Source: a virus. From it: a stretch of DNA of 64,000 bases. The notes below the pieces were generated by a model, which worked only from the letters and a program-made list of their open reading frames with translations, did no database searches and was not told where the DNA came from. The stretch spans positions 1-64,000 of IMG/VR virus record IMGVR_UViG_3300027141_000003. One strand, given 5' to 3'. Made by a program: the position numbers and the translations under genes. Shown here piece by piece: positions 87 to 12,353 of this stretch; position 1 is the stretch's first letter; every line of letters starts with the position of its first letter.

Positions 87-293
87 ATGGCTACCAAACT
101 ATACACAATCGAAAGCCTACTTGTAGGAAAAAACTATCGCTCAAACTCTCGCCACTTTTCAGGCGAAATTGTTTCTGCTGAACACCGCCCAGAAATTTGG
201 TATGGTGAAAAAACTGAAGCCTATCTAATCGAAATTCGTGCTGGTGGCTTGCGAAATAAATTTGCAACAATCGCAGTAAAGGTTGGTGAATAA
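87..293 (+). CDS. hypothetical early protein
   Basis: ORF with promoter and GAAGG RBS. Confidence 0.75.
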   Translation: MATKLYTIESLLVGKNYRSNSRHFSGEIVSAEHRPEIWYGEKTEAYLIEIRAGGLRNKFATIAVKVGE

Positions 294-295
294 TA

Positions 296-421
296 ATGGG
301 ATACATCGAAATTTTCCGAATGGACAACGAGGGTGCTGGCTGGGTAGATTTATCCGAAGCAACACCCGATGAATTATTCAACATCGAATTAGGATTATTA
401 GAGGAAGGTGCGTTCGAATGA
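296..421 (+). CDS. small acidic hypothetical protein (41 aa)
   Basis: MGYIEIFRMDNEGAGWVDL..., closely packed with its neighbours; below the ORF-track cutoff. Confidence 0.6.
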   Translation: MGYIEIFRMDNEGAGWVDLSEATPDELFNIELGLLEEGAFE

Positions 422-543
422 ACTTAGACGAATTCAAAAAACACGTGTTAGAAACACGTCAGGCAAGCAAGGCGGAAGCCTTGTCAGTGCTATCTGCTAC
501 AATTACAACTTCAACAAACGAAAGGGAAAACCTAAATGGCTAA
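418..543 (+). CDS. small hypothetical protein whose 3' end encodes the next promoter
   Basis: MNLDEFKKHVLETRQASKAEALSVLSATI...; ATGA overlap. Confidence 0.55.
   Translation: MNLDEFKKHVLETRQASKAEALSVLSATITTSTNERENLNG
482..503 (+). promoter_or_regulatory. PafBC-type promoter
   Basis: TGTCAG-N10-TACAAT. Confidence 0.75.
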
Positions 544-679
544 AATGAAACAACTACTTGATGAAATTATAAATTGCGATTTATGTAATGGTAAAGGCTG
601 GCAATTTTTTGGCAACGCTACTGAATACGATGTAGAGGCTTGCGAATGTAATCCTAATGAATTAGAGGTAAATTACTAA
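536..679 (+). CDS. small Cys-rich (zinc-finger-like) protein
   Basis: CDLCNGKG...CEC; AACGAAAGGG RBS. Confidence 0.6.
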   Translation: MAKMKQLLDEIINCDLCNGKGWQFFGNATEYDVEACECNPNELEVNY

Positions 680-807
680 TGAGCGAAATTGCTGGAATGT
701 GGATTTGCGATAATTGCGATACTCTCGCCATTGTGTCAGTGGAAACTGATACAATACTTGTAACACAATGTAAATGCGTAACTAACGAAAGGGAAACTAA
801 TGTATAA
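679..807 (+). CDS. small Cys-rich protein containing an embedded promoter
   Basis: CDNC...CKC; TAATG overlap. Confidence 0.55.
   Translation: MSEIAGMWICDNCDTLAIVSVETDTILVTQCKCVTNERETNV
734..755 (+). promoter_or_regulatory. PafBC-type promoter
   Basis: TGTCAG-N10-TACAAT. Confidence 0.75.
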
Positions 808-1003
808 AATAACTTGCGCCTATGATAGCAACGCTCCACACTGGTCTGCCGAATACGAAAACGAATTCGGTGCGTGGGAAAGTTTTTTCCGTTTTACCGA
901 TTGGGGAATGGCTAACGATTACTCAACTGTAAATATATCAACGCCAACTGGCAAAATGTATACAAAGGTTTTTTATCGTAGCGGAATGGTGGCAGTAAGA
1001 TGA
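800..1003 (+). CDS. hypothetical early protein
   Basis: ORF with AACGAAAGGG RBS. Confidence 0.7.
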   Translation: MYKITCAYDSNAPHWSAEYENEFGAWESFFRFTDWGMANDYSTVNISTPTGKMYTKVFYRSGMVAVR

Positions 1004-1191
1004 TGACCCGTAAAGATTATGTTGCAACCGCAGAAATTCTAAAGTATGCAAGCAATAAAATTCACCCCGCTGTTTTTTCTAAAGTCGTAAATGATTTCGC
1101 TGAAATGTTTGCAATTGATAATGAAAGATTTGATGTAAAACGATTTCACGAAGCGAGTGGATATAATGTTCCTAACTTCACTTCAAGATAA
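1000..1191 (+). CDS. hypothetical phage protein (MTRKDY...NERFD..RF type)
   Basis: ATGA overlap; motif common in small phage proteins. Confidence 0.7.
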   Translation: MMTRKDYVATAEILKYASNKIHPAVFSKVVNDFAEMFAIDNERFDVKRFHEASGYNVPNFTSR

Positions 1192-1297
1192 AGTAAAACG
1201 CATTCAGGAATTGCGTCGCAGTAATGCGGCGCAACCTGTTCGCAATAAAAAAAAATACACACGCAAAATAAAACATAAAAATAAATTTGATCAATAA
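1166..1297 (+). CDS. small basic protein with ArfA-like KKKYTRKIKHK motif
   Basis: MFLTSLQDKVKRIQELRRSNAAQPVRNKKKYTRKIKHKNKFDQ, translated by hand. Confidence 0.5.
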   Translation: MFLTSLQDKVKRIQELRRSNAAQPVRNKKKYTRKIKHKNKFDQ

Positions 1298-1315
1298 AAT
1301 TAATTTGTCGACAAA

Positions 1316-1375
1316 GCCCGCAGAGCTACGGGGTCGGGCGTGTCGTTACGGGTGTGATCTAAAACACCCTGAAAT
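1316..1375 (+). repeat. early-region fixed-geometry repeat, copy 1 of 9 (GCCCGCAG...GGG-N13-TTACG-N16-CCCTGAAAT)
   Basis: Other copies have TTACG-like blocks at 2334, 4215, 5520, 7377, 9923, 11143, 11192 and 11360. Confidence 0.8.
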
Positions 1376-1395
1376 CCTGCGTGTCAATTAGATAA

Positions 1396-1417
1396 TGTCG
1401 GTCCATTCTGTTATACT
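1396..1417 (+). promoter_or_regulatory. PafBC-type promoter
   Basis: TGTCGG-N10-TATACT. Confidence 0.8.
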
Positions 1418-1445
1418 TACAACCTTACCAACGAAAGGCCAACTA

Positions 1446-2165
1446 ATGAAATTGAAACGCTCTAATGATAGAAAGGTGGCTAACCTTGTCACAAAAAATG
1501 GAAAGCAAGCCGCAATTGCGAACACGTTCGGCCTACCTGCAGGAAAAGACTTTTCTTGTCCTGGTGCAACGTCTATCTGTGAGACTGTTTGCTACGCAGG
1601 CAAATTGGAAAAACTATATAAGGCAGTAAAGGCTAATCTTTTACACAACTGGGAATTGTTACGCAATGCAGACAATGACACAATGGTGCGCCTATTAGAT
1701 GAGATGATTGTTGATTTTGTTGCTGATTGTGATAAGAAGAATGCGCCTAAGTTATTCCGTATCCACTGGGACGGAGATTTCTTCAATGATACTTATACTT
1801 ATGCCTGGAAGACTGTTATCGAAAATCATTCCGATATTCAATTTTGGGTTTATACACGTGTAAAGTCTGCAGCGCTTATTCTAAAGGATGTATCTAATCT
1901 ATCTCTTTACTATTCCACCGACGATGAGAATAAAGAAATCGGTCACGAACTAAAAGTAAACGAAGGTATTCGCCTTGCTTACTTAGGCAAAACATTCGCC
2001 GTAACCGAAAGCACAATGAAAGAATTGACGGGCAAGCCTGGTGCAAAATGTCCTGAGAATATGAAATCAATTCCACTAATTAGCAATGCAGGTTCTGCTT
2101 GTGTATCTTGTGGCTTGTGTGTTTATGGTAAAGCAGACATTCGATTTAGCGCAACTAAAAAATAA
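1446..2165 (+). CDS. GP88-like phage protein (Cys-cluster, radical-SAM-related fold)
   Basis: CPGATSICETVCYA, FRIHWDGDF and C-terminal CP...CxxCxxC; start moved to the ATG after the RBS. Confidence 0.75.
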   Translation: MKLKRSNDRKVANLVTKNGKQAAIANTFGLPAGKDFSCPGATSICETVCYAGKLEKLYKAVKANLLHNWELLRNADNDTMVRLLDEMIVDFVADCDKKNAPKLFRIHWDGDFFNDTYTYAWKTVIENHSDIQFWVYTRVKSAALILKDVSNLSLYYSTDDENKEIGHELKVNEGIRLAYLGKTFAVTESTMKELTGKPGAKCPENMKSIPLISNAGSACVSCGLCVYGKADIRFSATKK

Positions 2166-2177
2166 GGAGAAATAAAA

Positions 2178-2300
2178 ATGGCCGAATTAAAATATTTAAA
2201 TGCGTTGCTAGCATCTGTTGTTGGTACTCCTGATCAAGCAAAAGCTGCAAAAGAATATTTAGCAGAAGTAGATCCCGACATATGGGGCCAGGAGGAGTAA
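2178..2300 (+). CDS. small hypothetical protein (40 aa)
   Basis: AAGGAG RBS; MAELKYLNALL... Confidence 0.55.
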   Translation: MAELKYLNALLASVVGTPDQAKAAKEYLAEVDPDIWGQEE

Positions 2301-2383
2301 AAGGCCCGCAGTACTGCGGGGTCGGGCGTGTCGTTAAGGATGTGATAATAATCACCCTGGAATTTTGGGCGGGTTGCCTAAAA

Positions 2384-2405
2384 TGTCAGTAGGATGTGTT
2401 ATACT
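2384..2405 (+). promoter_or_regulatory. PafBC-type promoter
   Basis: TGTCAG-N10-TATACT. Confidence 0.8.
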
Positions 2406-2433
2406 TCCATTATCCAACAACGAAAGGCTACAA

Positions 2434-2658
2434 ATGTCTAATCAAATTAAAGTTCCACACTCCGTAGTATTCGAGGCCATTATTGACCTTGATAAAATAC
2501 CTGCTAACTTACTTCCTGCATTACTAAAACTAAATGAAACAGATTTACTTACTATGTGTAAGGAAGCAACACTACACGCTCTTACTCAATCTAATTTATT
2601 GCAAACCGCTAATGAGTTTAATACTTGGGCTGAAGTAACTATCAAGGAAGGGGAATAA
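2434..2658 (+). CDS. hypothetical early protein
   Basis: Start follows the AACGAAAGG RBS. Confidence 0.7.
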   Translation: MSNQIKVPHSVVFEAIIDLDKIPANLLPALLKLNETDLLTMCKEATLHALTQSNLLQTANEFNTWAEVTIKEGE

Positions 2659-2660
2659 TA

Positions 2661-2930
2661 ATGGGAAGCATAACTGCATTAGGTATTCAAGATAGCGTGT
2701 TAGATTTAGAAACACAATTAGCCTATCACTTACAGGGTAATCATTACCCACCCGTTCCACTTTCTATGGTGCAACCTTGCATAGATGCTATTGACGCATA
2801 CTATGATGAGGATTTTGATCGACAGATAAAGATGCCTGAAGGCGTATCTTATAAAGGATTAGATACAGCACCTGCCTCCGCAATTATTGACCAACACCAC
2901 CTAGAGTTTTGGCTACCTGAGTGTGATTAG
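2661..2930 (+). CDS. hypothetical protein (HLQGNHYPPVP motif)
   Basis: ORF with RBS. Confidence 0.75.
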   Translation: MGSITALGIQDSVLDLETQLAYHLQGNHYPPVPLSMVQPCIDAIDAYYDEDFDRQIKMPEGVSYKGLDTAPASAIIDQHHLEFWLPECD

Positions 2931-2937
2931 TATCACA
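2922..2937. promoter_or_regulatory. CRP/GlxR-like box TGTGA-N6-TCACA (perfect)
   Basis: TGTGATTAGTATCACA. Confidence 0.65.
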
Positions 2938-2974
2938 CAATAACTTTCTCAAATAATGAGATACGGATACTAAA

Positions 2975-2996
2975 TGTCGGTGGTATCCGCTATAAT
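2975..2996 (+). promoter_or_regulatory. PafBC-type promoter
   Basis: TGTCGG-N10-TATAAT. Confidence 0.8.
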
Positions 2997-3025
2997 ACTA
3001 CTACCAACCAAACGAAAGGAAACAA

Positions 3026-3184
3026 ATGACAAACGCAACACTAGAGGTAGGCAAGTCCTACACAACCACTCAAAGTGGTATCACAGGAATAATCAAGTCG
3101 GTAGATACTCTGCCTAACGGCACAAGTCGTATCCTGCTTGATGTAGAAGGCAAGGAACGCTGGACAAGCGCAACTGCCAACTAA
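3026..3184 (+). CDS. small beta-barrel (SH3/KOW-like) protein
   Basis: MTNATLEVGKSYTTTQSGITGIIKSV...; strong RBS. Confidence 0.65.
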   Translation: MTNATLEVGKSYTTTQSGITGIIKSVDTLPNGTSRILLDVEGKERWTSATAN

Positions 3185-3289
3185 GGAGGCACACACCACT
3201 AATCGGGTGCTAAGCCACGAAACAGGGACAGTTTTGAGAGTGTTCTAGTCCAATGTCGTAAGTAAGAACTCTCCACCTTCGGGTGGAAA

Positions 3290-3311
3290 TGTCAGACCCC
3301 CCTGCTATACT
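3290..3311 (+). promoter_or_regulatory. PafBC-type promoter
   Basis: TGTCAG-N10-TATACT, preceded by a C(TTCG)G hairpin. Confidence 0.75.
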
Positions 3312-3346
3312 ATCCATAACAACAACCAACGAAAGGTAATAAATAA

Positions 3347-3763
3347 ATGAGCAGACAAATCACAGTAAAGGTCGCAACGACCAAAGTAATCAAGGCACTA
3401 GAAACTCGTCTAGCAACGCTAGAAAAAGACTATGCTTCACAAGAAGCAAAAGAAGCAAAGTTTCAGAAATCAGTAGAAGCGTGGCGCAAGGAAATTGGTA
3501 AGTGGGCTATTGCCAACTTCTCAAAGGCTGAGAACCTTCGCACAAACTATCGTGCTTGGAACAACACTCTCAATGTTGATTTTGACATTATCACAAAGGA
3601 AGGCAACTTCCCTACTGAACCTCAAAAAGATTTTGAGCAAATCCATCAGCACAGTTATCGTGAGATGAAAGAGGACATTACAAATGCTCTCACAATTCTC
3701 AAAATGACAGATGAGGAATTAGTCAATGCTTCTACAATGAAGCAGATTGCTAAGTATCTCTAA
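3347..3763 (+). CDS. hypothetical coiled-coil early protein
   Basis: ORF with promoter and RBS. Confidence 0.8.
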   Translation: MSRQITVKVATTKVIKALETRLATLEKDYASQEAKEAKFQKSVEAWRKEIGKWAIANFSKAENLRTNYRAWNNTLNVDFDIITKEGNFPTEPQKDFEQIHQHSYREMKEDITNALTILKMTDEELVNASTMKQIAKYL

Positions 3764-3811
3764 ATAGGTTTTGGGGGGTTAGCACACAAAGTCTAGACAC
3801 CTAAACCCAAA

Positions 3812-3838
3812 CAACCTGAGTAAGTTGCCAAACTGCTC
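3812..3838 (+). ncRNA. candidate 27-nt H-type pseudoknot, copy 1
   Basis: CAAC-CT-GAGTA-A-GTTG-CCAAAC-TGCTC; covarying copies at 5367 and 28962(-). Confidence 0.55.
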
Positions 3839-3850
3839 ACCCTTTGGGGC

Positions 3851-3880
3851 TAGACAAACTCTAACTCCAAATGCTATAAT
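3851..3880 (+). promoter_or_regulatory. sigma-A-type promoter
   Basis: TAGACA-N18-TATAAT with TG extension. Confidence 0.6.
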
Positions 3881-3907
3881 TAAAATCCCTACTAACAAAG
3901 GAACAAA

Positions 3908-4150
3908 ATGAAAAATCGTTATCGTGTAGAAATTTATGACGAAAACAAGTTAAATGATTTAACTATCTATTCTGAGCAAGGTGTCGATAAGGAATACTTA
4001 ACTGAATTAGTATTTTCTAATCTCCGCCGTTTTAACGGAACAATTCGTGCTTACGTTTATGATAATCTAAAGAAAAAGAAAATCACAGCGCTATTTTTAC
4101 CAGAAGAATTTATTCCCAAGAAAACAAACTTAACTAATCTAGTTGGCTAA
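3908..4150 (+). CDS. hypothetical protein
   Basis: ORF with AAAGGA RBS. Confidence 0.7.
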   Translation: MKNRYRVEIYDENKLNDLTIYSEQGVDKEYLTELVFSNLRRFNGTIRAYVYDNLKKKKITALFLPEEFIPKKTNLTNLVG

Positions 4151-4202
4151 AAAGTTGCAGCGATCTTCTCTTTCGCTGCAGCTGGCCCGCAGAGCTGCGG
4201 GG

Positions 4203-4232
4203 TTATCCACAGGGTTACGAGAGTTATCCACA
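4203..4232 (+). promoter_or_regulatory. two perfect DnaA boxes (TTATCCACA), 21 bp apart
   Basis: 4203-4211 and 4224-4232. Confidence 0.65.
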
Positions 4233-4245
4233 ATCCCTGGAAATT

Positions 4246-4261
4246 TGTGATAATGATCACA
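4246..4261. promoter_or_regulatory. CRP/GlxR-like box (perfect)
   Basis: TGTGATAATGATCACA. Confidence 0.65.
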
Positions 4262-4292
4262 TCACCCAATTCGGACATATTGTATCTAATCC

Positions 4293-4321
4293 TAGACAAT
4301 GTCAGTGGCAGATGTTATACT
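4293..4321 (+). promoter_or_regulatory. dual promoter: TAGACA -35 plus PafBC-type TGTCAG-N10-TATACT
   Basis: TAGACAATGTCAGTGGCAGATGTTATACT. Confidence 0.8.
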
Positions 4322-4350
4322 GAATCTAACAACCAATCGAAAGGAATAAA

Positions 4351-5358
4351 ATGGCTCATAATCTAGAAATGGAAAACGGCGAAGTTGCTTTTGCTCTTCG
4401 TGGTGCTCCTGCTTGGCACAATCTAGCAAATCGCATCTTTACAAAAGATGAGGAAGTTACAACTAGTCTAATGCTTGAAGAGGCAAAATTGGCTAATTGG
4501 AATGTTCGCTTATCACCATTGACTGACCACATTTCAGAATCTTGGAATGATGTATCTCAGGCATCTCTCGTCATTCGTGACAACCCATTCAACAAGGGAA
4601 TCGATGTTCTCGCAACTGTCGGCAAGCGTTACAAGCCTGTTCAGAATGAAGAATTGTTTGCATTCGCTGATGCAATTCACGATGCCAATGCTGATTGCCG
4701 TTGGGAATCTGCTGGCTCACTAAAAAAGGGTAAAGTTGTTTTCGGAACTGTGGACATTCCCCGCACAATGGTTCTTGACCCACAAGGCGCTAACGATGAG
4801 ACAAAACTTTATCTTATCGTATGGACATCACACGATGGTTCTGTTGCTGTTCAAGCAGCCGTTACACCTGTTCGTGTAGTATGCCAAAACACGCTAAACC
4901 TTGCAATGAAGAATGCTAAGCAATCTTTCAAGATTCGCCACACGCAATCTGTTGAAGGTCGCATTCAAGTTGCTCGTGAAACTCTTGGGCTTGCTCTTGG
5001 ATACTTTGATGAATTCGAAGTTCAAGCAAAAGCGCTTTACTCACAAGCAATCACCGATGCTGAATTCTCTAAGTTGATTCAGACAATCTATCCTAAGCCA
5101 GATAAAGATGCAGCAAAAGTTGCTCTTACTAAGTGGGAGAATAAGGTTGTTCTAATTGATGACCTTTATCATAACTCACCAACTAACGCTACAATCAAGG
5201 GAACTAAGTGGGGTGCGTTCAATGCACTAACTGAGCGCCTTGATTATTATCGTTCAGGTCGTGGCAATTCTGAAACACTAATGGCTGGTGCTTCAGGCTT
5301 TGACCCAATTCTCACCGCAGAAAAAAATAAGTTGTATCGAATGGTTGCAACTTTCTAA
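4351..5358 (+). CDS. DUF932/DUF945-family phage/plasmid protein
   Basis: MAHN..., AWH, YKPVQN, SHDGS, RVVCQNTL and TKWGAFNALTE motifs. Confidence 0.85.
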   Translation: MAHNLEMENGEVAFALRGAPAWHNLANRIFTKDEEVTTSLMLEEAKLANWNVRLSPLTDHISESWNDVSQASLVIRDNPFNKGIDVLATVGKRYKPVQNEELFAFADAIHDANADCRWESAGSLKKGKVVFGTVDIPRTMVLDPQGANDETKLYLIVWTSHDGSVAVQAAVTPVRVVCQNTLNLAMKNAKQSFKIRHTQSVEGRIQVARETLGLALGYFDEFEVQAKALYSQAITDAEFSKLIQTIYPKPDKDAAKVALTKWENKVVLIDDLYHNSPTNATIKGTKWGAFNALTERLDYYRSGRGNSETLMAGASGFDPILTAEKNKLYRMVATF

Positions 5359-5366
5359 ATAATAAA

Positions 5367-5393
5367 AATCCTAGGCACGATTTAAAACTGCCC
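5367..5393 (+). ncRNA. candidate pseudoknot, copy 2 (immediately 5' of tRNA-Asp)
   Basis: AATC-CT-AGGCA-C-GATT-TAAAAC-TGCC. Confidence 0.5.
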
Positions 5394-5397
5394 GCAA

Positions 5398-5471
5398 GAT
5401 CTCTTAGCTCAGTTGGTTAGAGCGCTACCCTGTCACGGTAGAGGTCACGGGTTCAAGTCCCGTAGGGGTCG
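5398..5471 (+). tRNA. tRNA-Asp (GTC)
   Basis: Cloverleaf: acceptor GATCTCT/AGGGGTC, anticodon arm CTACC-CTGTCAC-GGTAG, TTCAAGT T-loop; CCA not encoded. Confidence 0.92.
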
Positions 5472-5559
5472 CATCTCAAGATATGAGACGCCCGCAGACC
5501 TGAAGGCCAAATGTCCGTTTTACGGCTTTTATAAAAAAACCCCTGAAAGCTATTGTATA

Positions 5560-5581
5560 TGTCAGTGGGGCCTGGTACAAT
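5560..5581 (+). promoter_or_regulatory. PafBC-type promoter (leaderless, ATG 7 nt downstream)
   Basis: TGTCAG-N10-TACAAT-7nt-ATG. Confidence 0.75.
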
Positions 5582-5588
5582 TCTCTTT

Positions 5589-6254
5589 ATGACCAACGAA
5601 CTAGTATCAACTAAATATACATTTGCCTGTGACCCAGACGAATGCGATGTACTAATAGAACTAACATCATCTGACGGATTCGGATTCCCGTCGGGTGTGA
5701 CTGAAATCACTTGTCCGTGTGGCCGTAAGCCAGTCTTATTGTCAGTGGTCAATGCTACAATTGCTTCAACAACCCAAACGAAAGAGGAAAAAATGGAAGA
5801 GACAACAACACCTGCAGTAACAGTTCCTGATACATATAACCCTAATCTATTGGTAACTTACAAAGTTATCCGTGGTTACTCAGATGCTGAATATGCAACT
5901 GACAAGGTCACATCAATTGAATGGGACCTACACAATGCACGTCAAGCACAGAAGCACAATAGTGTTTACCAAGGCAAGATTGACACAGTCAAAGATATTA
6001 TCACTGAAGCATATGCTGATTCAGATGACCAAGAAACACTTCGTGCAATTGCTGAAGCGCTTTCAATTGAACTAATCAGAGAATTTGAATTTACCGCATC
6101 TATCGAGGTTAGCGGAACATATTCATATAACATTCTTGAAAATGATTATGACTTAGACCTTGAGTCAGAAGTTACAGATGCCCTCTTTGCTGATTCACAG
6201 AACGGTAACATTGAAATTACCGACCAAGAAGTATGCAACGTTAGTGAGCGCTAA
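5589..6254 (+). CDS. acidic hypothetical protein with N-terminal Cys motif; second in-frame start at 5793
   Basis: CDPDEC...CPCG N-terminus; internal promoter 5740-5761 and RBS before ATG 5793. Confidence 0.7.
   Translation: MTNELVSTKYTFACDPDECDVLIELTSSDGFGFPSGVTEITCPCGRKPVLLSVVNATIASTTQTKEEKMEETTTPAVTVPDTYNPNLLVTYKVIRGYSDAEYATDKVTSIEWDLHNARQAQKHNSVYQGKIDTVKDIITEAYADSDDQETLRAIAEALSIELIREFEFTASIEVSGTYSYNILENDYDLDLESEVTDALFADSQNGNIEITDQEVCNVSER
5740..5761 (+). promoter_or_regulatory. PafBC-type promoter inside a CDS
   Basis: TGTCAG-N10-TACAAT. Confidence 0.75.
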
Positions 6255-6466
6255 TGTACTTTGAGTTGACTGCTCCCGATAGGCTATCTATGGAGATGGC
6301 TTATTGGGATGCACAAATGATTGGGCTGGACCCAACTGCATTATCACCGTTGACATTCAACATCGGAACTGGTAGTATTGAGAAGGTGAGTCGCATTCGT
6401 GATAAGTATAACTTAATTGAAAGTTATACATCAGACTACGAGCCAACAGGATACACAAGGAGATAA
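6254..6466 (+). CDS. hypothetical protein
   Basis: TAATG coupling. Confidence 0.7.
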   Translation: MYFELTAPDRLSMEMAYWDAQMIGLDPTALSPLTFNIGTGSIEKVSRIRDKYNLIESYTSDYEPTGYTRR

Positions 6467-6467
6467 G

Positions 6468-6614
6468 ATGTCAGATTACAAAGATGGTTTTGATGACGGG
6501 TATAAATTTGCTCGTGAAGAGATTATGGAAAAGTTATCAGAGATTGATATCGCAGACATAGACTCTTGGATCTTAGACCGTCTTTCAGAAATGATCGAAG
6601 GTGGGAAACTATGA
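6468..6614 (+). CDS. small acidic hypothetical protein
   Basis: AGGAG RBS; MSDYKDGFDDGY. Confidence 0.65.
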   Translation: MSDYKDGFDDGYKFAREEIMEKLSEIDIADIDSWILDRLSEMIEGGKL

Positions 6615-6805
6615 TGGCTGAATGGCTTAAGTGTGATCAATGTGCAGCTCAGGCTATGTGGGAAGCTAAAAAGGATACAGCATCCCTTTATTTCTGTGGC
6701 CACCACAAAAATAAACAGGGCGAGCCACTTGTGGACTGGGCCCAAGAAATGATACAATTGCTTAACTACGAGCAAGAACAACAACTAGAAAAGGCGGAAA
6801 AGTAA
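6611..6805 (+). CDS. small zinc-binding protein (CxxC...FCGHH)
   Basis: Motif typical of small actinobacterial/actinophage proteins. Confidence 0.7.
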   Translation: MMAEWLKCDQCAAQAMWEAKKDTASLYFCGHHKNKQGEPLVDWAQEMIQLLNYEQEQQLEKAEK

Positions 6806-7209
6806 TGGGAGATAGAGCAAACTTCGTATTCGTGCAGCCAAACGGTCAATCGATTGTTTTGTACGGACACTGGGCTGGACATCAAATGCTACAACGTTTA
6901 GCAGAATCAGCAGTTAAGGCACAGGGCCGTTGGTCGGACCCTTCATATGCAACACGCATTACAATCAGCAATATGATTGGCGAAGGCTGGGCAATGGAGA
7001 CAGGCTGGGGATTATCTGTAAATGAAATTGCAGACAACGAGCACAAGATTCCTGTAATTGATTTTCAGCAACAGACATTTAGTCTTCACGAAGAGGCGCC
7101 GTATTCAGATGAATCTAATAAGATTCGTGGGATGAAGAATGAGGCAATCTTTACACAGGACCTAAGTAACTTCTGTGAGAAGTACTCAGACCAATTGGTT
7201 CGAGTATAA
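6805..7209 (+). CDS. hypothetical protein (MGDRAN...LYGHWAG)
   Basis: Coupled ORF. Confidence 0.8.
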   Translation: MGDRANFVFVQPNGQSIVLYGHWAGHQMLQRLAESAVKAQGRWSDPSYATRITISNMIGEGWAMETGWGLSVNEIADNEHKIPVIDFQQQTFSLHEEAPYSDESNKIRGMKNEAIFTQDLSNFCEKYSDQLVRV

Positions 7210-7244
7210 CTAATTAATCTAAAGGTGCCTCTATAGTCTTCGCA

Positions 7245-7342
7245 GGCCAGGGGTTAACTAAAGCATCGGATTTTACTTTCGTTGGTTACCGATAGCAGCC
7301 TTAGTAAAGAACCCTGGATCATTAACGTGTCCAGGGCTTTTT
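7245..7342 (+). ncRNA. candidate antisense sRNA/attenuator with loop complementary to the early-gene leader, followed by an intrinsic terminator
   Basis: Stem ATCGG/CCGAT encloses CTTTCGTTGGTT (reverse complement of AACCAACGAAAG); terminator CCCTGGA/TCCAGGG-CTTTTT. Confidence 0.55.
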
Positions 7343-7470
7343 GCTGCCCGCAACAGCTGAGGGGAATAAAGTCTATTTACGGATAACATATATAAATCCT
7401 GGAAATTGGACATATTGGACATATATCTATCTGATCATAGCTTTTGTGGTGTGAATCACACGATATTGCA

Positions 7471-7500
7471 TAGACAAATGTCAGTGGTCCATTATATAAT
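7471..7500 (+). promoter_or_regulatory. PafBC-type promoter with TAGACA -35
   Basis: TAGACAAA TGTCAG-N10-TATAAT. Confidence 0.8.
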
Positions 7501-7527
7501 TAGAACCTATCAACGAAAGGATATAAA

Positions 7528-8319
7528 ATGCCAAATTGGTGTTACAACACATTAACTATCCAAGGACCTAAGTCTGAGGTAGATATGATTAAAGATAGAT
7601 TGAATGCTCCATTTACATTAGCACAAGAGACATATGGTATGGGTGATATTAGTCTTTCAGGATTCCCCACCAAAATTGAACAGGTAAGTTATTCTAATCC
7701 TGTCTTTGCTTTCTTTAATATCCACTCATATAAAGATGAGGGAATTACTGATGAGGAATATGCCTGCCAGCCTTCTCGTGGTAACTATGATATACAAAAT
7801 GACCCTGATTGGTTCCGCAAGTCTGTTGAGTTCGCTAAGACTCAGAAGGATTGGTATTCTTGGAATAATTCTAATTGGGGAACTAAATGGGATGTAGCCG
7901 TCCGTGACGGTGATGAATATCCTGAAACAGAATTGCTTGAATATAAATCAGAAGGTGATGACAACTGGGTTATCTATAAGTATGAGACTGCTTGGTCACC
8001 TGCTGTAACTATCTTAACTAAACTATCTAATCTTGTTCCTAACTGCCTGCTTACTTTAGAGTTTGAGGAAGAGACAGGTTGGGGTGGGGAATATGAGATT
8101 GTTCGTGGTGAAGTAAAAGAACTAGTTGAATATGAAAATCGTTGTAATGAATGTGATTCATATGACACATTGTCTTATTGTGAGAATGACTGCGGTGAAT
8201 TCTGTTCTGAATGCGAGCACGGCTCTTGGAGAGACGAAGAGGCTATGAAAGAATGTCAGACCCATATGCTAACATTACCTATTAAGACCTACACACAGGA
8301 AGAGGCACTAAATGGCTAG
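7528..8319 (+). CDS. DUF1281/YubB ferredoxin-like domain protein
   Basis: MPNWCYN, WGTKWD and TAWSP motifs; Cys-rich C-terminus. Confidence 0.8.
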   Translation: MPNWCYNTLTIQGPKSEVDMIKDRLNAPFTLAQETYGMGDISLSGFPTKIEQVSYSNPVFAFFNIHSYKDEGITDEEYACQPSRGNYDIQNDPDWFRKSVEFAKTQKDWYSWNNSNWGTKWDVAVRDGDEYPETELLEYKSEGDDNWVIYKYETAWSPAVTILTKLSNLVPNCLLTLEFEEETGWGGEYEIVRGEVKELVEYENRCNECDSYDTLSYCENDCGEFCSECEHGSWRDEEAMKECQTHMLTLPIKTYTQEEALNG

Positions 8320-8536
8320 TTTCTTAGAAGATGTAAATCAAATGGTAATTGACGCTTGCTATCAAGATATAGCAGAACAATTACTTGAAGATTGGATTAA
8401 TAATAATCTTGACGAAGGGCAATATTATGCAGATAAGCAATTTGCTGAAATGTCAGGAGATAAGTTTGTTCAATCTGAATTTAATAAGTTCTATGAACTT
8501 AAAGAGGGAGATGAGGGTTACATTGACATACTATAA
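8312..8536 (+). CDS. acidic hypothetical protein
   Basis: Overlapping ORF. Confidence 0.7.
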   Translation: MASFLEDVNQMVIDACYQDIAEQLLEDWINNNLDEGQYYADKQFAEMSGDKFVQSEFNKFYELKEGDEGYIDIL

Positions 8537-8693
8537 CTTTGTAATTAGATTACACGGTGCAGTTGGCGCTAATAGCGAACAAGAAGCAATTGAGAAAATC
8601 AATGGACACTTAGATGACCTAGGTGATGTTGAAAGTATTATTAAGTATGACTTAGGTTGGCCTGAGACATCTTGGGAATTGGAGGAAGCATAA
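8523..8693 (+). CDS. hypothetical protein
   Basis: Probable TTG start after GAGGG. Confidence 0.55.
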   Translation: MTYYNFVIRLHGAVGANSEQEAIEKINGHLDDLGDVESIIKYDLGWPETSWELEEA

Positions 8694-8875
8694 TGTTAGG
8701 ATATACGGAATCTGATCTAAATAGGATGATTAATGCTATACACGATTCAAAGCTTTTTTATCTTAGGACCCCGTCAGATTTAATGGACAAGGAGCCTTTG
8801 AGGAAAGACTTGGAAGACGCTGTTAGTTTCTTGCAAGGTTTGTGGGCGGAGGGTTACTTTGACTACACAAACTAA
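8693..8875 (+). CDS. hypothetical protein
   Basis: GGAGG RBS; TAATG coupling. Confidence 0.65.
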   Translation: MLGYTESDLNRMINAIHDSKLFYLRTPSDLMDKEPLRKDLEDAVSFLQGLWAEGYFDYTN

Positions 8876-9044
8876 ATCTAGTAAGTTCATAGAGTATATG
8901 AAGATACATCTAATTAGTCTTAACCAGGACTTAGAGGGTGATTATAATGTTCAATCTAAGATTAATATCCAGGGACAAATTATGGCAACCGAACATTTAT
9001 TGTCAGTGGCGACTGATATAATGAATGAAAACGAAAGGGTCTAA
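8859..9044 (+). CDS. hypothetical protein with embedded promoter
   Basis: Ends ...LSVATDIMNENERV. Confidence 0.6.
   Translation: MTTQTKSSKFIEYMKIHLISLNQDLEGDYNVQSKINIQGQIMATEHLLSVATDIMNENERV
9001..9022 (+). promoter_or_regulatory. PafBC-type promoter
   Basis: TGTCAG-N10-TATAAT. Confidence 0.75.
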
Positions 9045-9045
9045 T

Positions 9046-9324
9046 ATGGAAACTCTATATAAGGATGATGAACTTCCTTTGCACCTCCAGCGTTTAGTTG
9101 ACGCAGGTGTTAATGGATTAGATATAATGCACGGCGAACTAAAGAATCTAATGTTGATTGCCGAAGAGCAATTGGCTTGGGCTCAGGCAATTGAAGATGA
9201 GACCGAAGAGGCAATGGATTCAATGGCACGTACAGAGGCGGAAGGACGACTAGATACTCTAGTTGAACTATATAAACTAACATATGCTTTATCATTTGCG
9301 ATTGGAGCACGTAATGAAGCCTGA
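9046..9324 (+). CDS. hypothetical protein
   Basis: AACGAAAGGG RBS. Confidence 0.7.
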   Translation: METLYKDDELPLHLQRLVDAGVNGLDIMHGELKNLMLIAEEQLAWAQAIEDETEEAMDSMARTEAEGRLDTLVELYKLTYALSFAIGARNEA

Positions 9325-9634
9325 AGATAAAGATAAACTAAACGAATGTTTGGCTATTCTAGATAAGACGGACCTAGGTCTATCCTTAGTTTGGCTATGG
9401 ACTTGGTCTACCATTAACAACATATTTGAGGATGAGACGTACAGGCAGAACTGCACCATAGATGAGATGTGGGACCACCTCTGTGAGGCTGTAGAGGCGG
9501 GCCAGGGCTTCTCTCTGGAGTACGGGGCAGAACAGCACAATGATGACGTCCTTGACTGGATGTTAAGCCGTGACTACATTGTTGACTCAATGTTTGAAGA
9601 AGAGGAAGAGGAGGAAGAAGATGAAGATGAGTGA
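9314..9634 (+). CDS. acidic hypothetical protein with poly-Glu tail
   Basis: Overlapping ORF. Confidence 0.7.
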   Translation: MKPEDKDKLNECLAILDKTDLGLSLVWLWTWSTINNIFEDETYRQNCTIDEMWDHLCEAVEAGQGFSLEYGAEQHNDDVLDWMLSRDYIVDSMFEEEEEEEEDEDE

Positions 9635-9914
9635 CACCTACATCAATGATCAGTTAAGTAAGGCCCAAGCTTTGTTATGGTCTGGATCTCTACACGAGGT
9701 AGACGAAGCACATAACATTGTATCTAATCTAATACAAGATAGGTTGGGCAATGAGTAAATATAAAGTAAAGATAGAGATAGTAGGGGGAGTCCCATATGT
9801 TCTTGAATGCCCACCTGAAGTAGATGTTGAGATTAAACAGGTTAATCATTGGCAGAGGTGGCGTGAACAACAAAAACTAATTAAAGATAAGTTGGTAAAG
9901 GAAGGAGGGCAAAA

Positions 9915-10148
9915 ATGACTCATTATGAGCCGAGCTTAGAAATCCTGGAAGTTGAGTATTCTTGTAGTCCAGGAGGAATTGATCTATTTGAAGTCTATGA
10001 TAAATCTGATATACCTTTATCTGTCCCAATATATGAGACAGAGAACTTGACCGATGCGGTCCTATTCTGTTACAATTTAGGTAAAGACTTTACTGTCAGG
10101 ACATTAGCGGAATGGAATGAAAGGGAGTTGGAGTATGCCTCTATATAG
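9915..10148 (+). CDS. hypothetical protein
   Basis: AAGGAGG RBS. Confidence 0.7.
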   Translation: MTHYEPSLEILEVEYSCSPGGIDLFEVYDKSDIPLSVPIYETENLTDAVLFCYNLGKDFTVRTLAEWNERELEYASI

Positions 10149-10335
10149 AGTGTTTGGTACCAAGTATAAAAACTACTACACAATTGTTTCGGCTGCCGAC
10201 GAATATCAAGCAGCGGAGATTGCAAACCTGCGTCCAGAAACTGATTGGGACGCAATTGTTACGGATGACGTCATTGAGGCGACAGACGTATTCTTAGATG
10301 AAGATACCGAGATAGATTTAAATCTCAACATATAG
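10135..10335 (+). CDS. acidic hypothetical protein
   Basis: Overlapping ORF. Confidence 0.65.
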   Translation: MPLYRVFGTKYKNYYTIVSAADEYQAAEIANLRPETDWDAIVTDDVIEATDVFLDEDTEIDLNLNI

Positions 10336-10346
10336 GCGGAAAGCTA

Positions 10347-10375
10347 TTTACAATTTCGTAAATAGTTGATATAAT
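10347..10375 (+). promoter_or_regulatory. sigma-A-type promoter
   Basis: TTTACA-N17-TATAAT. Confidence 0.65.
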
Positions 10376-10407
10376 AAATATAAACATCTCTTGAAAGGGG
10401 ATCTAAA

Positions 10408-10554
10408 ATGGCAACAAAGCGTGAATATCTAAAGTCACAAGGAATTACAGTTGGCCTACGTGGGCGCTTCTCAGCTGCAGCAGTAAAAGCTCTATCAGAT
10501 GCACAGACCAAGGGCATCACATTCGAGGCGGAAACAAAGTCAGCAAAGAAGTAA
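10408..10554 (+). CDS. Lsr2-like DNA-binding domain protein (48 aa)
   Basis: REYLKSQGITVGLRGRFSAAAV matches the Lsr2 C-terminal RGR AT-hook pattern. Confidence 0.65.
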   Translation: MATKREYLKSQGITVGLRGRFSAAAVKALSDAQTKGITFEAETKSAKK

Positions 10555-10589
10555 CTAATCTATTGTACGATCACGAGGGGCTGGCTAAA

Positions 10590-10611
10590 TGTCAGTCCTT
10601 CGTGCTATAAT
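10590..10611 (+). promoter_or_regulatory. PafBC-type promoter
   Basis: TGTCAG-N10-TATAAT. Confidence 0.75.
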
Positions 10612-10637
10612 CAAAGGTCATAGAGAAGAGGCGGAAT

Positions 10638-11048
10638 ATGAAAACCAAAGAAGAGCAAATCGGAGAACTTCTAGCAAATTCAGTAGAAGACCATTTCTTC
10701 AACCCTGCCGCTTTAGGCAGGTATCTAGCAGACCAACCGACATACACCTTAGACCGTGTTATGGAGGTAGTAGCGTGGGTTATAGAGAAGCAGGCAAGAC
10801 GATATGACCGAGAACTGGAAACGGGTGGGGCGATATCAGAAGGTCTTGCTATTGCTTCTAAGTTAGACTTAGTTATAGATAAGATAAGTCGGGAGAATGA
10901 ACTAAAGAATGTCAAATTGCCTATGACTCCAAATCAAAGGCGGGCGTTCATAAAGAGTCTCCCTAAAGAACAAGAACAATCATATAGATACTCTTGGCTA
11001 CACGAAACAAATAATCAATCTAATACATTTGTAAACCAGGGAATGTAA
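10638..11048 (+). CDS. hypothetical protein, last gene of the + block
   Basis: ORF after promoter. Confidence 0.75.
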   Translation: MKTKEEQIGELLANSVEDHFFNPAALGRYLADQPTYTLDRVMEVVAWVIEKQARRYDRELETGGAISEGLAIASKLDLVIDKISRENELKNVKLPMTPNQRRAFIKSLPKEQEQSYRYSWLHETNNQSNTFVNQGM

Positions 11049-11076
11049 ATCTAAATAGATCTAATATAGCCCAGAA

Positions 11077-11113
11077 TTATCCACAGGTTTATCCACAGCC
11101 TGTGGATTTTTTT
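11077..11113 (+). terminator. intrinsic terminator built from DnaA boxes
   Basis: ATCCACAGG/CCTGTGGAT stem plus T-run; TTATCCACA at 11077 and 11089. Confidence 0.65.
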
Positions 11114-11123
11114 GTGAAAAAAA

Positions 11124-11390
11124 TGTGGGCCGAATTTTCCATTTACGACACATGAAAAAAAGTCCCTGAAATTGTGGGCCATATATTCCATTTACGACGA
11201 GCTATAAAAAATCCCTCAAATTCTAGGAAAAAGTATATCTAATCTAATATAATGTATATGGAATCATAGAGAACATATAATGAATCTGGCATAATATACC
11301 CAGAATTGGTCAAAATTTTTCTATAGAAATCTATTGACAATGTGGGCCAAATATGCTATTTACGAGGCTATTGACAGGATCCCTGAAATA
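11124..11390 (+). repeat. three copies of TGTGGGCC...TTACG-N16-CCCTGAAAT in the non-coding junction
   Basis: Copies starting about 11124, 11173 and 11341. Confidence 0.8.
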
Positions 11391-11720
11391 TGATAGGCAT
11401 ATGGGGTCTATGTGGAGCAAAATGGATTAAAATGGGGGCTTATGGAGCCCTGCCCAATTACACATATAACTAAATAGATATAATATAATAGTAATTGCTA
11501 TAGAATTAGTAGTAATTATTCTGGTAGATCATCTCTAGAATATGCCAAATAAGGCTCTAGGAGGCTATATGAGAGGTGTTTAAATGCGGGGGGGATATAG
11601 GAGTGCTCTACTTGCAGATACTGCAATTCCTTGAGCGATATAGCTCCACTAGTGAGGATACTATGGCAATGGCTGATATACCTAACATTAGATAGATCCA
11701 GTATACGTACCAGATAGCCA

Positions 11721-11909
11721 TTATTTACACAACATACAGTAGAAAGGATTTCTCATATGATCTTTATGGATCACAAGGGTCTGAGCACATTTAGAGCATA
11801 CAGCATCTATATAATCTGTCTCTCTTTTGGGTATATTGACCTTTGGGTTTCTTGTATAGTATAGCTTGGTTATATACCATGTAATGGCTATTAGTAGTAG
11901 TTCTATCAT
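11721..11909 (-). CDS. membrane-anchored zinc-finger protein
   Basis: N-terminal hydrophobic segment; CxxC...CxxC. Confidence 0.6.
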   Translation of the reverse strand: MIELLLIAITWYITKLYYTRNPKVNIPKRETDYIDAVCSKCAQTLVIHKDHMRNPFYCMLCK

Positions 11910-11921
11910 CGGTTCCCGCCC

Positions 11922-12143
11922 TTATCTATTTGGTCCCATAAATGGGGTTATTCTACTTTTACGACTACCCTTATAGCCGTCATCAAAATCTTTTAGTTCA
12001 TCATACCCATATCCTGCATTATTTAGATCTGGTTGGGGATTGGGCATATCATCGCCCATAGCACCACAATTAAAGCATGTAATTTGACCATCAAGGTCTA
12101 GTTGATAGTCACATCCATATTTAGTACAAATGGCATCGCTCAT
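11922..12143 (-). CDS. Cys-rich hypothetical protein
   Basis: ORF track. Confidence 0.6.
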   Translation of the reverse strand: MSDAICTKYGCDYQLDLDGQITCFNCGAMGDDMPNPQPDLNNAGYGYDELKDFDDGYKGSRKSRITPFMGPNR

Positions 12144-12353
12144 TTAATACCCTCCCATACATTCATTACGAGTATGATATAGCCTGATCTTATTCATAAT
12201 CTTCTTACTAGGAGCATATAGCTCTTCCCCACAGCAAGCAGTTTTTAGATGCCATTCTCTGGCAAAGAAGTCATACTTCATGCCCTTGAATTTGGCATAC
12301 TTGATTGCTACAAATGTAGCAAATGGATCAGGTATCTCTAGGTTCTGAATCAT
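12144..12353 (-). CDS. hypothetical protein (leaderless)
   Basis: TATAAT 6 nt before ATG. Confidence 0.65.
   Translation of the reverse strand: MIQNLEIPDPFATFVAIKYAKFKGMKYDFFAREWHLKTACCGEELYAPSKKIMNKIRLYHTRNECMGGY

Follow-up and report, generated by a model that had tools for sequence, protein, structure and literature searches.

What is the short composite element that recurs, always in the same orientation, along the early-gene block of an abundant uncultured freshwater actinobacterial phage, and which machinery reads it? The phage genome is 109,912 bp long (a circular assembly with a 127-bp overlap), and we analysed a window consisting of its first 64,000 nucleotides. Throughout, class B refers to the TTACG element under study and class A to separate PafBC-type promoter sites.

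Geometry and conservation of the class B element

The first-pass annotation had described nine copies of a fixed-geometry element in a single orientation, and all nine were found on the + strand, starting at 1330, 2318, 4199, 5504, 7361, 9907, 11127, 11176 and 11344. Searched with at most two mismatches, the full pattern gave these 9 matches in the window versus 0.01 expected from shuffles. A tenth copy lies outside the window at 109665-109710, also on the + strand, and the 109,912-bp genome contains no others. The GCCCGCA block noted 14-15 bp before the GGG of the first five copies was seen there and in the tenth copy as well, and the palindromes CCCGCAG-N2-CTGCGGG at 2305 and 4186 are present as claimed. 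The element is strictly spaced and one-directional over about 46-60 bp; it heads early operons and clusters at the edge of the block.

Class B is conserved across hundreds of related contigs. The 24 related viral records that we searched contain 168 copies, compared with a single control hit; within each record, the copies share one strand and one block of 6-13 kb. Spacing is equally rigid, as had been proposed: TTACG and CCCTGAAA are separated by N16 in 78 cases and by N15 in 12, with no other spacing, and CCCTGAAA itself occurs 112 times on the element strand versus 2 on the opposite strand. In 57 orthologous regions around copy 3, blocks and boxes were conserved at 0.84-1.00 and the short gaps between them at 0.51-0.66, below the 0.78 of third codon positions. 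The class B signal is real and strongly conserved. Its rigid spacing, strand specificity and conservation, and a purifying selection that is seen on the blocks and absent from the filler, give good support to the extended protein footprint that had been suggested. The element may be regarded as a polar docking site with a fixed frame, read by one sequence-specific protein machine of the phage lineage rather than of the host.

The spacers, which had been said to differ freely, can be sorted into subtypes by the insert that they hold: TCGGGCGTGTCG, a pair of DnaA boxes at constant offsets, the word ATGTCCG, a Crp-like palindrome or TTGACA. These inserts are kept between orthologous copies and are under purifying selection. 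In 30 copies, DnaA boxes occupy fixed slots (+4 or +6; +25 or +27/28). A Crp-like palindrome goes with 81 of the 99 long copies, where chance would give about 5 %.

Gene-proximal and right-border copies

Class B occurs in two forms. The gene-proximal (long) form has the extra GCCCGCA block and a PafBC-type promoter just downstream, and the right-border form lies in a non-coding gap flanked by predicted convergent terminators; among 158 copies, 99 are gene-proximal and 59 are gene-less between such terminators. All 99 gene-proximal copies are co-oriented with their genes, and 82 of them have a class A promoter within 100 nt downstream, the distance from class B to class A being 11-105 nt. The class A sites carry both PafBC-type features, the -26 element and the canonical -10.

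Copies 1 to 5 of this phage, all on the + strand, are of the long form. Copy 1 (1316-1375) comprises GCCCGCA (1316-1322), GGGG (1330), TCGGGCGTGTCG in spacer 1, TTACG (1346), a Crp-like TGTGA-N6-ACACC in spacer 2 (1353-1368) and CCCTGAAAT (1367-1375), and is followed by a class A promoter at 1396 and a GP88-family gene (1446-2165). Copy 2 (2304-2363) contains the perfect palindrome CCCGCAG-TA-CTGCGGG, TCGGGCGTGTCG, the block 2 variant TTAAG, a Crp-like site (2341-2356) and CCCTGGAAT, with a class A promoter at 2384. In copy 3 (4185-4261), the palindrome and GGGG precede a DnaA box (4203-4211), TTACG (4215), a second DnaA box (4224-4232), CCCTGGAAAT and then a perfect Crp-like palindrome (4246-4261); a class A promoter at 4300 and a DUF932 gene (4351-5358) lie downstream. 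Copy 4 (5490-5549) directly follows a tRNA-Asp and consists of GCCCGCA (5490), the block 1 variant AGG, the word ATGTCCG in spacer 1, TTACG (5520) and CCCTGAAAG, with a class A promoter at 5560. Copy 5 (7346-7406) carries GCCCGCA (7346), GGGG (7361), TTACG (7377) and CCTGGAAAT. Upstream of it, a hairpin followed by a T-run (about 7310-7343) was read by eye and is not listed by the terminator scan; downstream are two TTGGACATA words, a Crp-like site (7445-7460), a class A site at 7479 and an Api92-like gene.

The candidate copy 6 (9907-9952, + strand) lies within coding sequence. It does overlap a start codon at 9915, as had been noted, together with the ribosome-binding site of a 77-aa ORF, but it is doubtful as a functional copy: it is the weakest, with two mismatches (TTATG, GAAGT), and its conservation in relatives follows the protein N-terminus MTHYEPSLEILEV.

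A 0.5-kb non-coding island holds the right-border copies; about 15 relatives retain it, but not the flanking genes. The region 11,049-11,720 has no credible ORF and holds two DnaA boxes, an inverted partial box and three class B copies. A terminator-like segment for the + block (11077-11114, + strand), with direct DnaA boxes at 11077 and 11089, an inverted TGTGGAT at 11101 and a T-run, opens the island. Copies 7 and 8 (11127-11221, + strand) are of the GGGCMA form and follow each other head to tail at a period of 49 bp; they have neither GCCCGCA nor a class A promoter. Copy 9 (11344-11389, + strand) has TTGACA upstream and within spacer 2. The distal part (11390-11620, no strand assigned) contains a predicted - strand terminator (11450-11436), CAATTACACATATA and GGGGGGATATAGGAGT (11589-11604), and conservation among relatives stops at about 11,610-11,620.

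The promoter-type reading

The reading that we favour, tentatively, is a factor-dependent docking site of the promoter type. We infer that the machine is RNA polymerase, and each of the following steps likewise. Host RNA polymerase would be redirected by a putative small phage protein, as T4 MotA/AsiA re-aim the housekeeping sigma factor, and would contact a -35-like block (TTACG) and a -10-region block (CCCTGAAA), as well as TG-GGG some 52 bp upstream and, in long-form copies, GCCCGCA. Host proteins bound to the DnaA and Crp-type boxes in or beside both spacers would gate access. The subterminal copies without genes would send transcription toward the genome end, in the manner of promoters at the origins of T7 and T4 and at concatemer junctions of T7. 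For each early operon, the copy at its head would be a second input, in tandem with the PafBC-type promoter downstream. Host PafBC also re-aims the housekeeping sigma factor (PMC8635444), and early genes of T4 are known to be preceded by two classes of promoter in tandem (PMC2839356, PMC4122927).

The geometry fits the promoter for a phage or alternative sigma factor that the first-pass annotation had put forward, the centres of TTACG and CCCTGAAA being 22.5 bp apart, close to the 23 bp of sigma-70 hexamers. Other observations speak against it. Block 3 does not have the A(-11) and T(-7) that mark a housekeeping -10 element, TGAAAT taken as -10 gives a 19-bp spacer, and no TAnnnT is conserved at any fixed offset in the class B copies. 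No sigma factor, T7-type polymerase or two-barrel polymerase was detectable in the phage genome. The listed metatranscriptome contigs bridge the copies at 4199 and 7361 rather than starting at class B, and begin just after TATAAT-type sites (3885, ~5604, 9039); being assembled contigs, they are weak evidence against a promoter. Finally, the 59 gene-less copies face no gene, and the related elements of cultured phages occur only in gene-less subterminal DNA.

Three known promoter classes were considered and rejected. For a housekeeping sigma-70/SigA promoter, TTTACG agrees with TTGACA at 4 of 6 positions and CCCTGAAA has G at A(-11). The PafBC-dependent (RecA-NDp) promoter consists of a -26 element TGTCRGTG and a canonical -10, without -35 (PMC8635444), and class B has neither of these elements. 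For a host alternative-sigma class, a search for exact matches to TTACG-N16-CCCTGAAA in a sample of 401 Actinomycetia genomes gave 2 hits versus 5 for the reversed control, and one of the two hits, which we inspected, was inside a coding sequence. Since the motif is not enriched in these Actinomycetia genomes and no phage polymerase or sigma factor was detected, an extra factor must be assumed.

Subterminal repeats in cultured phages and the alternative readings

Cluster-BE Streptomyces phages (Bmoc NC_055842.1, Samisti12, Mildred21, MindFlayer and others) carry related subterminal TTTACGA repeats, apparently undescribed and new here. In nine Samistivirus phages, 4-6 sense-strand copies and no antisense copy are present in subterminal non-coding DNA; the copies are invariant against a background divergence of about 30 %, and the last one always lies 219-221 nt from the physical end. 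The pattern recurs in MindFlayer, where 238 nt separate the last copy from the end. As in class B, TTTACGA is followed after 15-16 bp by a GC-rich block and then A/T, on the sense strand only, and two short boxes stand ahead of the first copy of the array, which lies downstream of a block with GP88 and DUF932 homologues. The third block is CCAGGGATT, GCCGGGCTT or GCGGGATTT in BE phages and CCCTGAAAT in this phage, and the last BE copy has TTGTCAAAAT in its spacer, the counterpart being TTGACA in this phage and TTGACAAAAT in relatives. Unlike class B, the BE repeats have no fixed GGG 16 bp upstream. No operon-head copies were found in the terminal repeats of Bmoc and MindFlayer, where another word (GGGCCGCCCCGGCCC in Bmoc) follows hairpins, and the first 14 kb of Bmoc hold no TTTACGA copies beyond the subterminal non-coding DNA.

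These TTTACGA-N15-GC-block copies sit in an 11-kb terminal repeat. That of Bmoc (11,063 bp) contains the GP88 and DUF932 homologues and has the topology seen in our phage, a small-gene block transcribed toward a 936-bp non-coding end. Copy 9 corresponds to the TTTACGA copy that comes last in the subterminal array of the BE phages. Because BE phages carry these copies in their terminal repeat, the + block of this phage is probably a collapsed long terminal repeat, as judged by homology and shared topology, and the BE phages place its predicted physical terminus near 11,580.

The element might then be the binding unit of machinery acting on a long terminal repeat, which we consider possible but less than likely: a T5-like injection-stop or anchor for two-step DNA entry, a terminase or end-processing array, or a DnaA-assisted origin, with the gene-proximal copies as secondary copies of the subterminal repeat. 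Selective conservation of the island, its location with predicted convergent terminators on either side and two DnaA boxes adjacent, the common topology with Bmoc and the near-constant end distance of the sense-only BE arrays all favour this reading. The T5 injection-stop region likewise consists of untranslated repeats with DnaA boxes (bioRxiv 10.1101/866236). Like the island, it is non-coding and borders a block of small early genes in a long terminal repeat (inferred in this phage); each combines oriented and inverted repeats with DnaA boxes in a definite layout that the phage group conserves. The stretch 11,049-11,720 thereby shows what marks such a region: no credible ORF, repeats in one orientation and more than one DnaA box. 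The two share no sequence similarity, T5 having 8 DnaA boxes and different repeats, and the island's unit also heads early operons. As for an origin, direct repeats, DnaA boxes, phased A-tracts and the cumulative GC-skew maximum all fall at 11.1-11.6 kb, but in the comparison with iteron-type origins no initiator gene was identified, and seven more class B copies lie at operon heads. A terminal-repeat role leaves unexplained why copies stand at nearly every early operon head, in a set place between the GC-rich word and the promoter, and why Crp-type sites are interleaved. Moreover, cultured phages share block 2, the spacing and a GC-rich third block rather than the whole element, the long repeat of this phage is itself deduced, and the fixed 220-nt distance may simply reflect few indels in a conserved region. 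That related elements lie subterminally in cultured relatives lends support to the role in DNA entry or translocation raised by the first-pass annotation, but does not settle it.

It is unlikely, though still worth weighing, that class B is an operator array for a phage-encoded regulator, an early shut-off repressor or polar roadblock, with transcription not starting there. The sites are polar, intergenic, co-oriented with transcription and upstream of true gene promoters, TGnGGG is matched by a quasi-inverted CCCTGA about 40 bp away, the listed RNA contigs read through copies, and the motif is phage-specific. The stoperators of Cluster A mycobacteriophages, bound by L5 gp71, are also many asymmetric sites in one orientation to transcription within short intergenic gaps. 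They are single 13-bp sites with an identified repressor in temperate phages, whereas class B is a multi-block frame of 46-60 bp in an apparently virulent lineage with no repressor identified. No protein of the repressor or helix-turn-helix kind was found in the block, and the one small HTH protein is a 48-aa ORF at 37144-37290, with no role assigned. With class A 11-105 nt away, direct occlusion of its promoter is unlikely, and the gene-less subterminal copies are left unexplained.

A recombination site for shuffling gene cassettes, served by a dedicated recombinase or acting as a hotspot of homologous exchange, is very improbable. Relatives clearly show rearranged gene modules, genes for RecA, RuvC and a PD-(D/E)XK nuclease are present in the phage, and homology breakpoints are indeed about twice as dense in class B windows (3.9 per 100 bp) as in the background (1.9). 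But class A/leader repeats reach 6.9, the junction of the relocated Api92-like gene falls at the class A site at 7477, no serine or tyrosine recombinase was found (PF00239 and PF00589 are absent from all six genome frames), and repeat exchange does not explain purifying selection on a rigid multi-block frame. A parallel is offered by the PeSL (promoter-early stem-loop) cassettes of T4-type phages (PMC2839356, PMC4122927), short composite motifs repeated between small variable early genes and co-oriented with them, in which a GC-rich inverted repeat precedes a promoter-like part and modules are rearranged between relatives. Class B differs in that its promoter part is not of the housekeeping type, a stable stem occurs in only about 12 % of long copies (all six pairs at the fixed register in 12/99, outer CCC/GGG pairs in 71-86/99), breakpoints favour class A/leader repeats over the element, more than one-third of copies are in gene-less subterminal DNA, and host DnaA and Crp-type boxes are built into the frame.

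An RNA-level element (leader structure, processing site or nut/put-like antitermination site) is hardly credible: some copies have local hairpins and CCCTGAAA resembles the 5' arm and loop of lambda boxB, but the six-pair upstream stem is as rare as stated, Rfam gave nothing, a DnaA box can occupy its slot in either direction, something that only double-stranded DNA would explain, and RNAalifold found no consensus structure in the 158 copies or either sub-class, indicating that the signal acts at the DNA level.

A broader, rather unlikely scheme would have a phage protein and host DnaA bind both the subterminal array and the operon-head copies, staging DNA entry or end processing together with early transcription. 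If true, such a control system would be the actinophage counterpart of the unexplained two-step injection signal of T5, and the cultured Streptomyces phages with a related array about 220 nt from their ends could serve to test it.

Copy number, spacing and conservation of the class B element

In the window, a search with the pattern GGG-N13-TTACG-N16-CCYKGAAAT, allowing up to two mismatches, returned nine matches against 0.01 expected, all on the + strand, with their TTACG-like blocks at 1346, 2334, 4215, 5520, 7377, 9923, 11143, 11192 and 11360. These are the nine copies of this element, hereafter class B, reported in the first-pass annotation. A tenth copy lies at 109,665 and no others were found elsewhere in the genome. 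Scanning viral contigs with the two-block core and screening them with the full pattern gave 158 non-identical copies in 36 related loci, none of which carried copies on both strands. Among 24 whole related records (about 1.2 Mb), 168 matches were obtained vs one for the reversed control, and in each record, including those 70-113 kb long, they occupied a single strand and a single block of 6-13 kb. TTACG-N16-CCCTGAAA occurred 78 times and the N15 variant 12 times, with no other spacing between 10 and 23, and CCCTGAAA was found 112 times on the element strand vs twice on the opposite strand. Since the spacing is kept in relatives and the matches are neither genome-wide nor in both orientations, the original observation of a fixed geometry, a single orientation and a confined block stands.

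The spacers had been described as differing freely, which does not hold, as they contain DnaA boxes at fixed offsets and recurring words. Thirty copies carry exactly two DnaA boxes, one at +4 (forward) or +6 (reverse) and one at +25 (forward) or +27/28 (reverse), and TCGGGCGTGTCG is present in the first spacer of 18 copies. Several features unused in the search are also conserved, namely a TG at -3/-2, an A-tract directly before the third block, a TT after it and CCC..A at -13 to -8. The copies fall into two super-classes, a gene-proximal form (99 copies) and a GGGCMA right-border form (59 copies). Upstream GCCCGCA is found in 84/99 gene-proximal and 0/59 right-border copies, a PafBC-type class A promoter within 100 nt in 82/99 and 9/59, and a Crp-like TGTGA-N6-TCACA palindrome within the element or directly after it in 81/99 (about 5 % expected by chance) and 1/59, respectively.

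An orthologous footprint of 57 non-identical regions upstream of the DUF932 gene gave conservation values of 1.00 for GGGG, 0.98 for the first DnaA box, 0.96 for TTACG, 0.85 for the second DnaA box and 0.84 for the third block; the Crp-like palindrome (4246-4261) scored 0.90 overall, with invariant half-sites TGTGA and TCAC. Because blocks and inserted host-factor boxes are both highly conserved while the short gaps between them (0.51-0.66) fall below third codon positions (0.78), each of them is under purifying selection. No shared RNA structure was obtained with RNAalifold and the upstream six-pair stem forms in only 12/99 long copies, indicating that the signal acts on double-stranded DNA.

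Early-block genes, promoters and the search for a reader

The IMG/VR record, of which the window covers bases 1-64,000, is a 109,912-bp assembly that closes on itself through a 127-bp overlap of its ends. Judged by its DnaE-type polymerase, 57 % identical to those of large Streptomyces phages, and by a gene set comprising DnaB, RecA, RuvC, a PD-(D/E)XK nuclease and a WhiB protein, this is an actinobacterial phage of low GC content (about 39 %). The + strand carries about 47 small genes between ~108.7 kb and 11,048, spanning the record start (the + block); the remaining genes all lie on the - strand, so that the two gene sets converge at 11.05-11.72 kb. Large ORFs encode structural, replication or nucleotide-metabolism proteins, and the genes that follow class B copies belong to the actinophage families GP88, DUF932 and Api92-like, with no function assigned. 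In lakes and rivers this family of phages is highly abundant, one early gene being common to 290 viral contigs at >=91 % identity and the early block being present in 19 metatranscriptome runs (river and lake). No cultured phage matched the early block at the nucleotide level, and the sole Rfam match in 1-13,000 was a tRNA. This tRNA-Asp (5398-5472) is bracketed by GCCCGCA at 5390-5396 and 5490-5496; the first ends one base before the mature 5' end and is followed by no class B element, which looks like the outcome of a tRNA inserting into, or duplicating, an upstream GCCCGCA block.

Class A sites, AATGTCRGTGG-N7-(TG)nTAtAaT, were found at 30, 1396, 2384, 2975, 3290, 4300, 5560, 7479, 9001 and 10590 in the window and at 108765 in the genome, 25-35 nt upstream of a AACGAAAGG ribosome-binding site and an ATG. 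They fit the PafBC type of hybrid -26/-10 promoter, which is read by PafBC through sigma adaptation (PMC8635444), and are the gene-proximal promoters of the + block. Crp/GlxR-like palindromes (TGTGA-N6-TCACA) lie at 1353-1368, 2341-2356, 2922-2937, 4246-4261 and 7445-7460, ~63-73 bp upstream of predicted class A start points. Another shared word, AAAWCGGACATWT (ATGTCCG on the complementary strand), recurs between class B and class A sites at 4270-4281 (about 0.95 conserved), 7406-7424 and 5511-5517, in intergenic regions of the terminal repeat of the Streptomyces phage Bmoc and, in both lineages, immediately before TTTACG; a further factor may bind it.

In 4/19 metatranscriptome runs, the listed contigs span the class B copies at 4199 and 7361 and start just after TATAAT-type sites at 3885, about 5604 and 9039. 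The RNA data being assembled contigs of which a minority are listed, missing starts and thin cover are not evidence of silence: among the contigs listed, none starts at the predicted class B starts (about 1381, 2369, 4250, 5555, 7412, 11178, 11227 and 11395) and there is little cover of about 11,160-11,418. One contig ends at 11,418 with adapter sequence attached, which fits a predicted - strand terminator at 11450-11436. As assembled contigs, they speak only weakly against strong initiation at class B.

We then consider what could read the element. The exact two-block core gave two matches in 401 Actinomycetia genomes, vs five for the reversed control, and the one match inspected lies inside an oxidoreductase gene; given this lack of enrichment, class B, unlike class A, is not a copy of a host promoter type in the genomes sampled. 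With the models Sigma70_r2, r4, r4_2, TIGR02937 and T7-type RNA polymerase, no match in the phage exceeded the 16 bits of a helix-turn-helix at 37.2 kb, the T7-type model being uninformative as it had no match in any control genome either, and the DxDGD motif is absent from every ORF of at least 50 aa. Thus neither a sigma factor nor a polymerase of the single-subunit or two-barrel kind was detected in the phage. The helix-turn-helix match is a 48-aa ORF (37144-37290, - strand), weakly like sigma region 4 (16 bits), with a methyltransferase gene on one side and a RuvC-like gene on the other; no other small DNA-binding candidate was seen in the genome. No DNA-binding domain came out of Pfam and PHROG scans of 29 proteins, from the + block or of large size, and for GP88 and DUF932 no relative with a solved structure was found, the protein atlas giving only their own families. 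A literature full-text search for the motif words returned unrelated papers only, and class B matches no described promoter, operator or origin repeat. To our knowledge, it does not fit sigma-54-, sigma-28-, SigF- or ECF-type consensus sequences, nor does its opposite strand fit those considered. WhiB was tried as bait for host genomes and rejected, as it returned mostly phage contigs binned into unrelated MAGs; its close relatives lie on contigs binned as Bacteroidia, Arenimonas, Chitinophagaceae and Saccharibacteria MAGs, most likely mis-binned phage contigs.

The right-border island and the terminal repeats of cluster-BE phages

The three right-border copies (11127, 11176 and 11344) lie in a non-coding island ending near 11,620, which starts with two DnaA boxes and an inverted box with a T-run, terminator-like for the + block. 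The island is kept in about 15 relatives, its flanking genes being common to only 1-3. At its outer edge, GGGGGGATATAGGAGT (11589-11604) is conserved in >80 % of 14 relatives, and its core GGGGGATATA corresponds to the inverted first bases of some cluster-BE genomes (Mildred21 left end: GTGGGGGATATATCG), which may be a coincidence or may belong to a symmetric end-processing site. At 11401-11450, five ATGG/ATGT-led units with 9-12 nt spacings (ATGGGGTCT, ATGTGGAGCAAA, ATGGATTAAA, ATGGGGGCTT and ATGGAGCCC) have an iteron-like look and overlap the predicted - strand terminator.

Homologues of DUF932 and GP88, about 50 % identical, occur in cultured cluster-BE Streptomyces phages, where they sit inside an 11-kb direct terminal repeat (PMC5764925, PMC10690885). 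The Bmoc repeat (11,063 bp) contains ~20 small genes, all transcribed in the direction of the physical end and each under a control region of its own, followed by 936 bp of non-coding DNA up to that end; in the right-hand repeat, unique-region genes converge on this non-coding end island. The topology is that of the + block and right border of the freshwater phage. Most intergenic regions of Bmoc 1189-10411 share a layout of a GC hairpin, then GGGCCGCCCCGGCCC, then a TAGACT-type -10, GGGCCGCCCCGGCCC being a different boundary word in the position of GCCCGCA...GGGG in the freshwater phages.

The cluster-BE subterminal region is 68-87 % conserved in 86 phages, with coding annotations almost absent. 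Nine Samistivirus phages have 4-6 TTTACGA there, exclusively on the gene-sense strand, and the first 14 kb of Bmoc have no TTTACGA outside this region. These copies are invariant vs about 30 % background divergence, and at TTACG+N16 a GC-rich block is followed by A/T (CCAGGGATT, GCCGGGCTT, GCGGGATTT). The last copy lies 219-221 nt from the physical end in 9/9 phages; its spacer holds TTGTCAAAAT, where this phage has TTGACA and relatives have TTGACAAAAT, and the first copy is preceded by two TGTCCG-type boxes vs two DnaA boxes in this phage. MindFlayer, a more distant phage, repeats this pattern and has its copies 664, 622, 500 and 238 nt from the end. The satellite MiniFlayer has no subterminal array, which is uninformative because it encodes its own packaging genes, and BillNye (cluster BE1-like), whose left end is organised differently, gave no comparison. 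A 220-nt offset from the TTTACGA at 11,359 would put the end near 11,580, which falls about 30-40 nt before the conservation limit among relatives. By analogy, we infer that the + block may be a collapsed long terminal repeat of about 12.9 kb, with the right-border copies as its subterminal repeats.

Possible roles of the element

The closest analogues of class B are the PeSL (promoter-early stem-loop) cassettes of T4-type phages and the repeat region of T5. We tentatively favour class B as a factor-dependent promoter-type site. Such a site would best explain the -35/-10-like geometry and strict co-orientation, and would account best for the operon-head position, where a promoter of another class stands in tandem as in T4, and for the host-factor boxes packed into the spacers, but it calls for a factor not seen here and for gene-less copies with a special function. 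Rather doubtful, a terminal-repeat signal would give the best account of the subterminal array and of the T5-like company of DnaA boxes (bioRxiv 10.1101/866236), yet it leaves the operon-head copies unexplained. An operator, which we regard as unlikely, would fit the polarity and the read-through by RNA contigs; no regulator was found. One protein could serve several of these roles.

A recombination site for shuffling gene cassettes had also been proposed. Gene modules are rearranged between relatives, but homology breakpoints are denser at class A promoter/leader repeats (6.9 per 100 bp) than at class B (3.9) or elsewhere (1.9), and no serine or tyrosine recombinase was found in the phage, so that a dedicated recombination site is very improbable and largely excluded; class B would be at most a minor junction. 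The Api92-like gene (7528-8319), whose neighbourhood varies among relatives and whose upstream junction at 7477 is a class A site, is a clear case of module exchange at a promoter/leader repeat. An RNA-level element, lacking shared structure and with DnaA boxes in either orientation, is the least probable and likewise largely excluded.

The cis-element that organises the early region has host DnaA and Crp-type sites as selected parts of its frame, suggesting that a virulent phage senses, at the level of DNA, the replication and metabolic state of its host. Connecting it to the subterminal repeats of cultured Streptomyces phages makes a problem known only from metagenomes accessible to bench work and gives, in addition to T5, a second model of what DnaA-box-rich repeat regions do in long terminal repeats.
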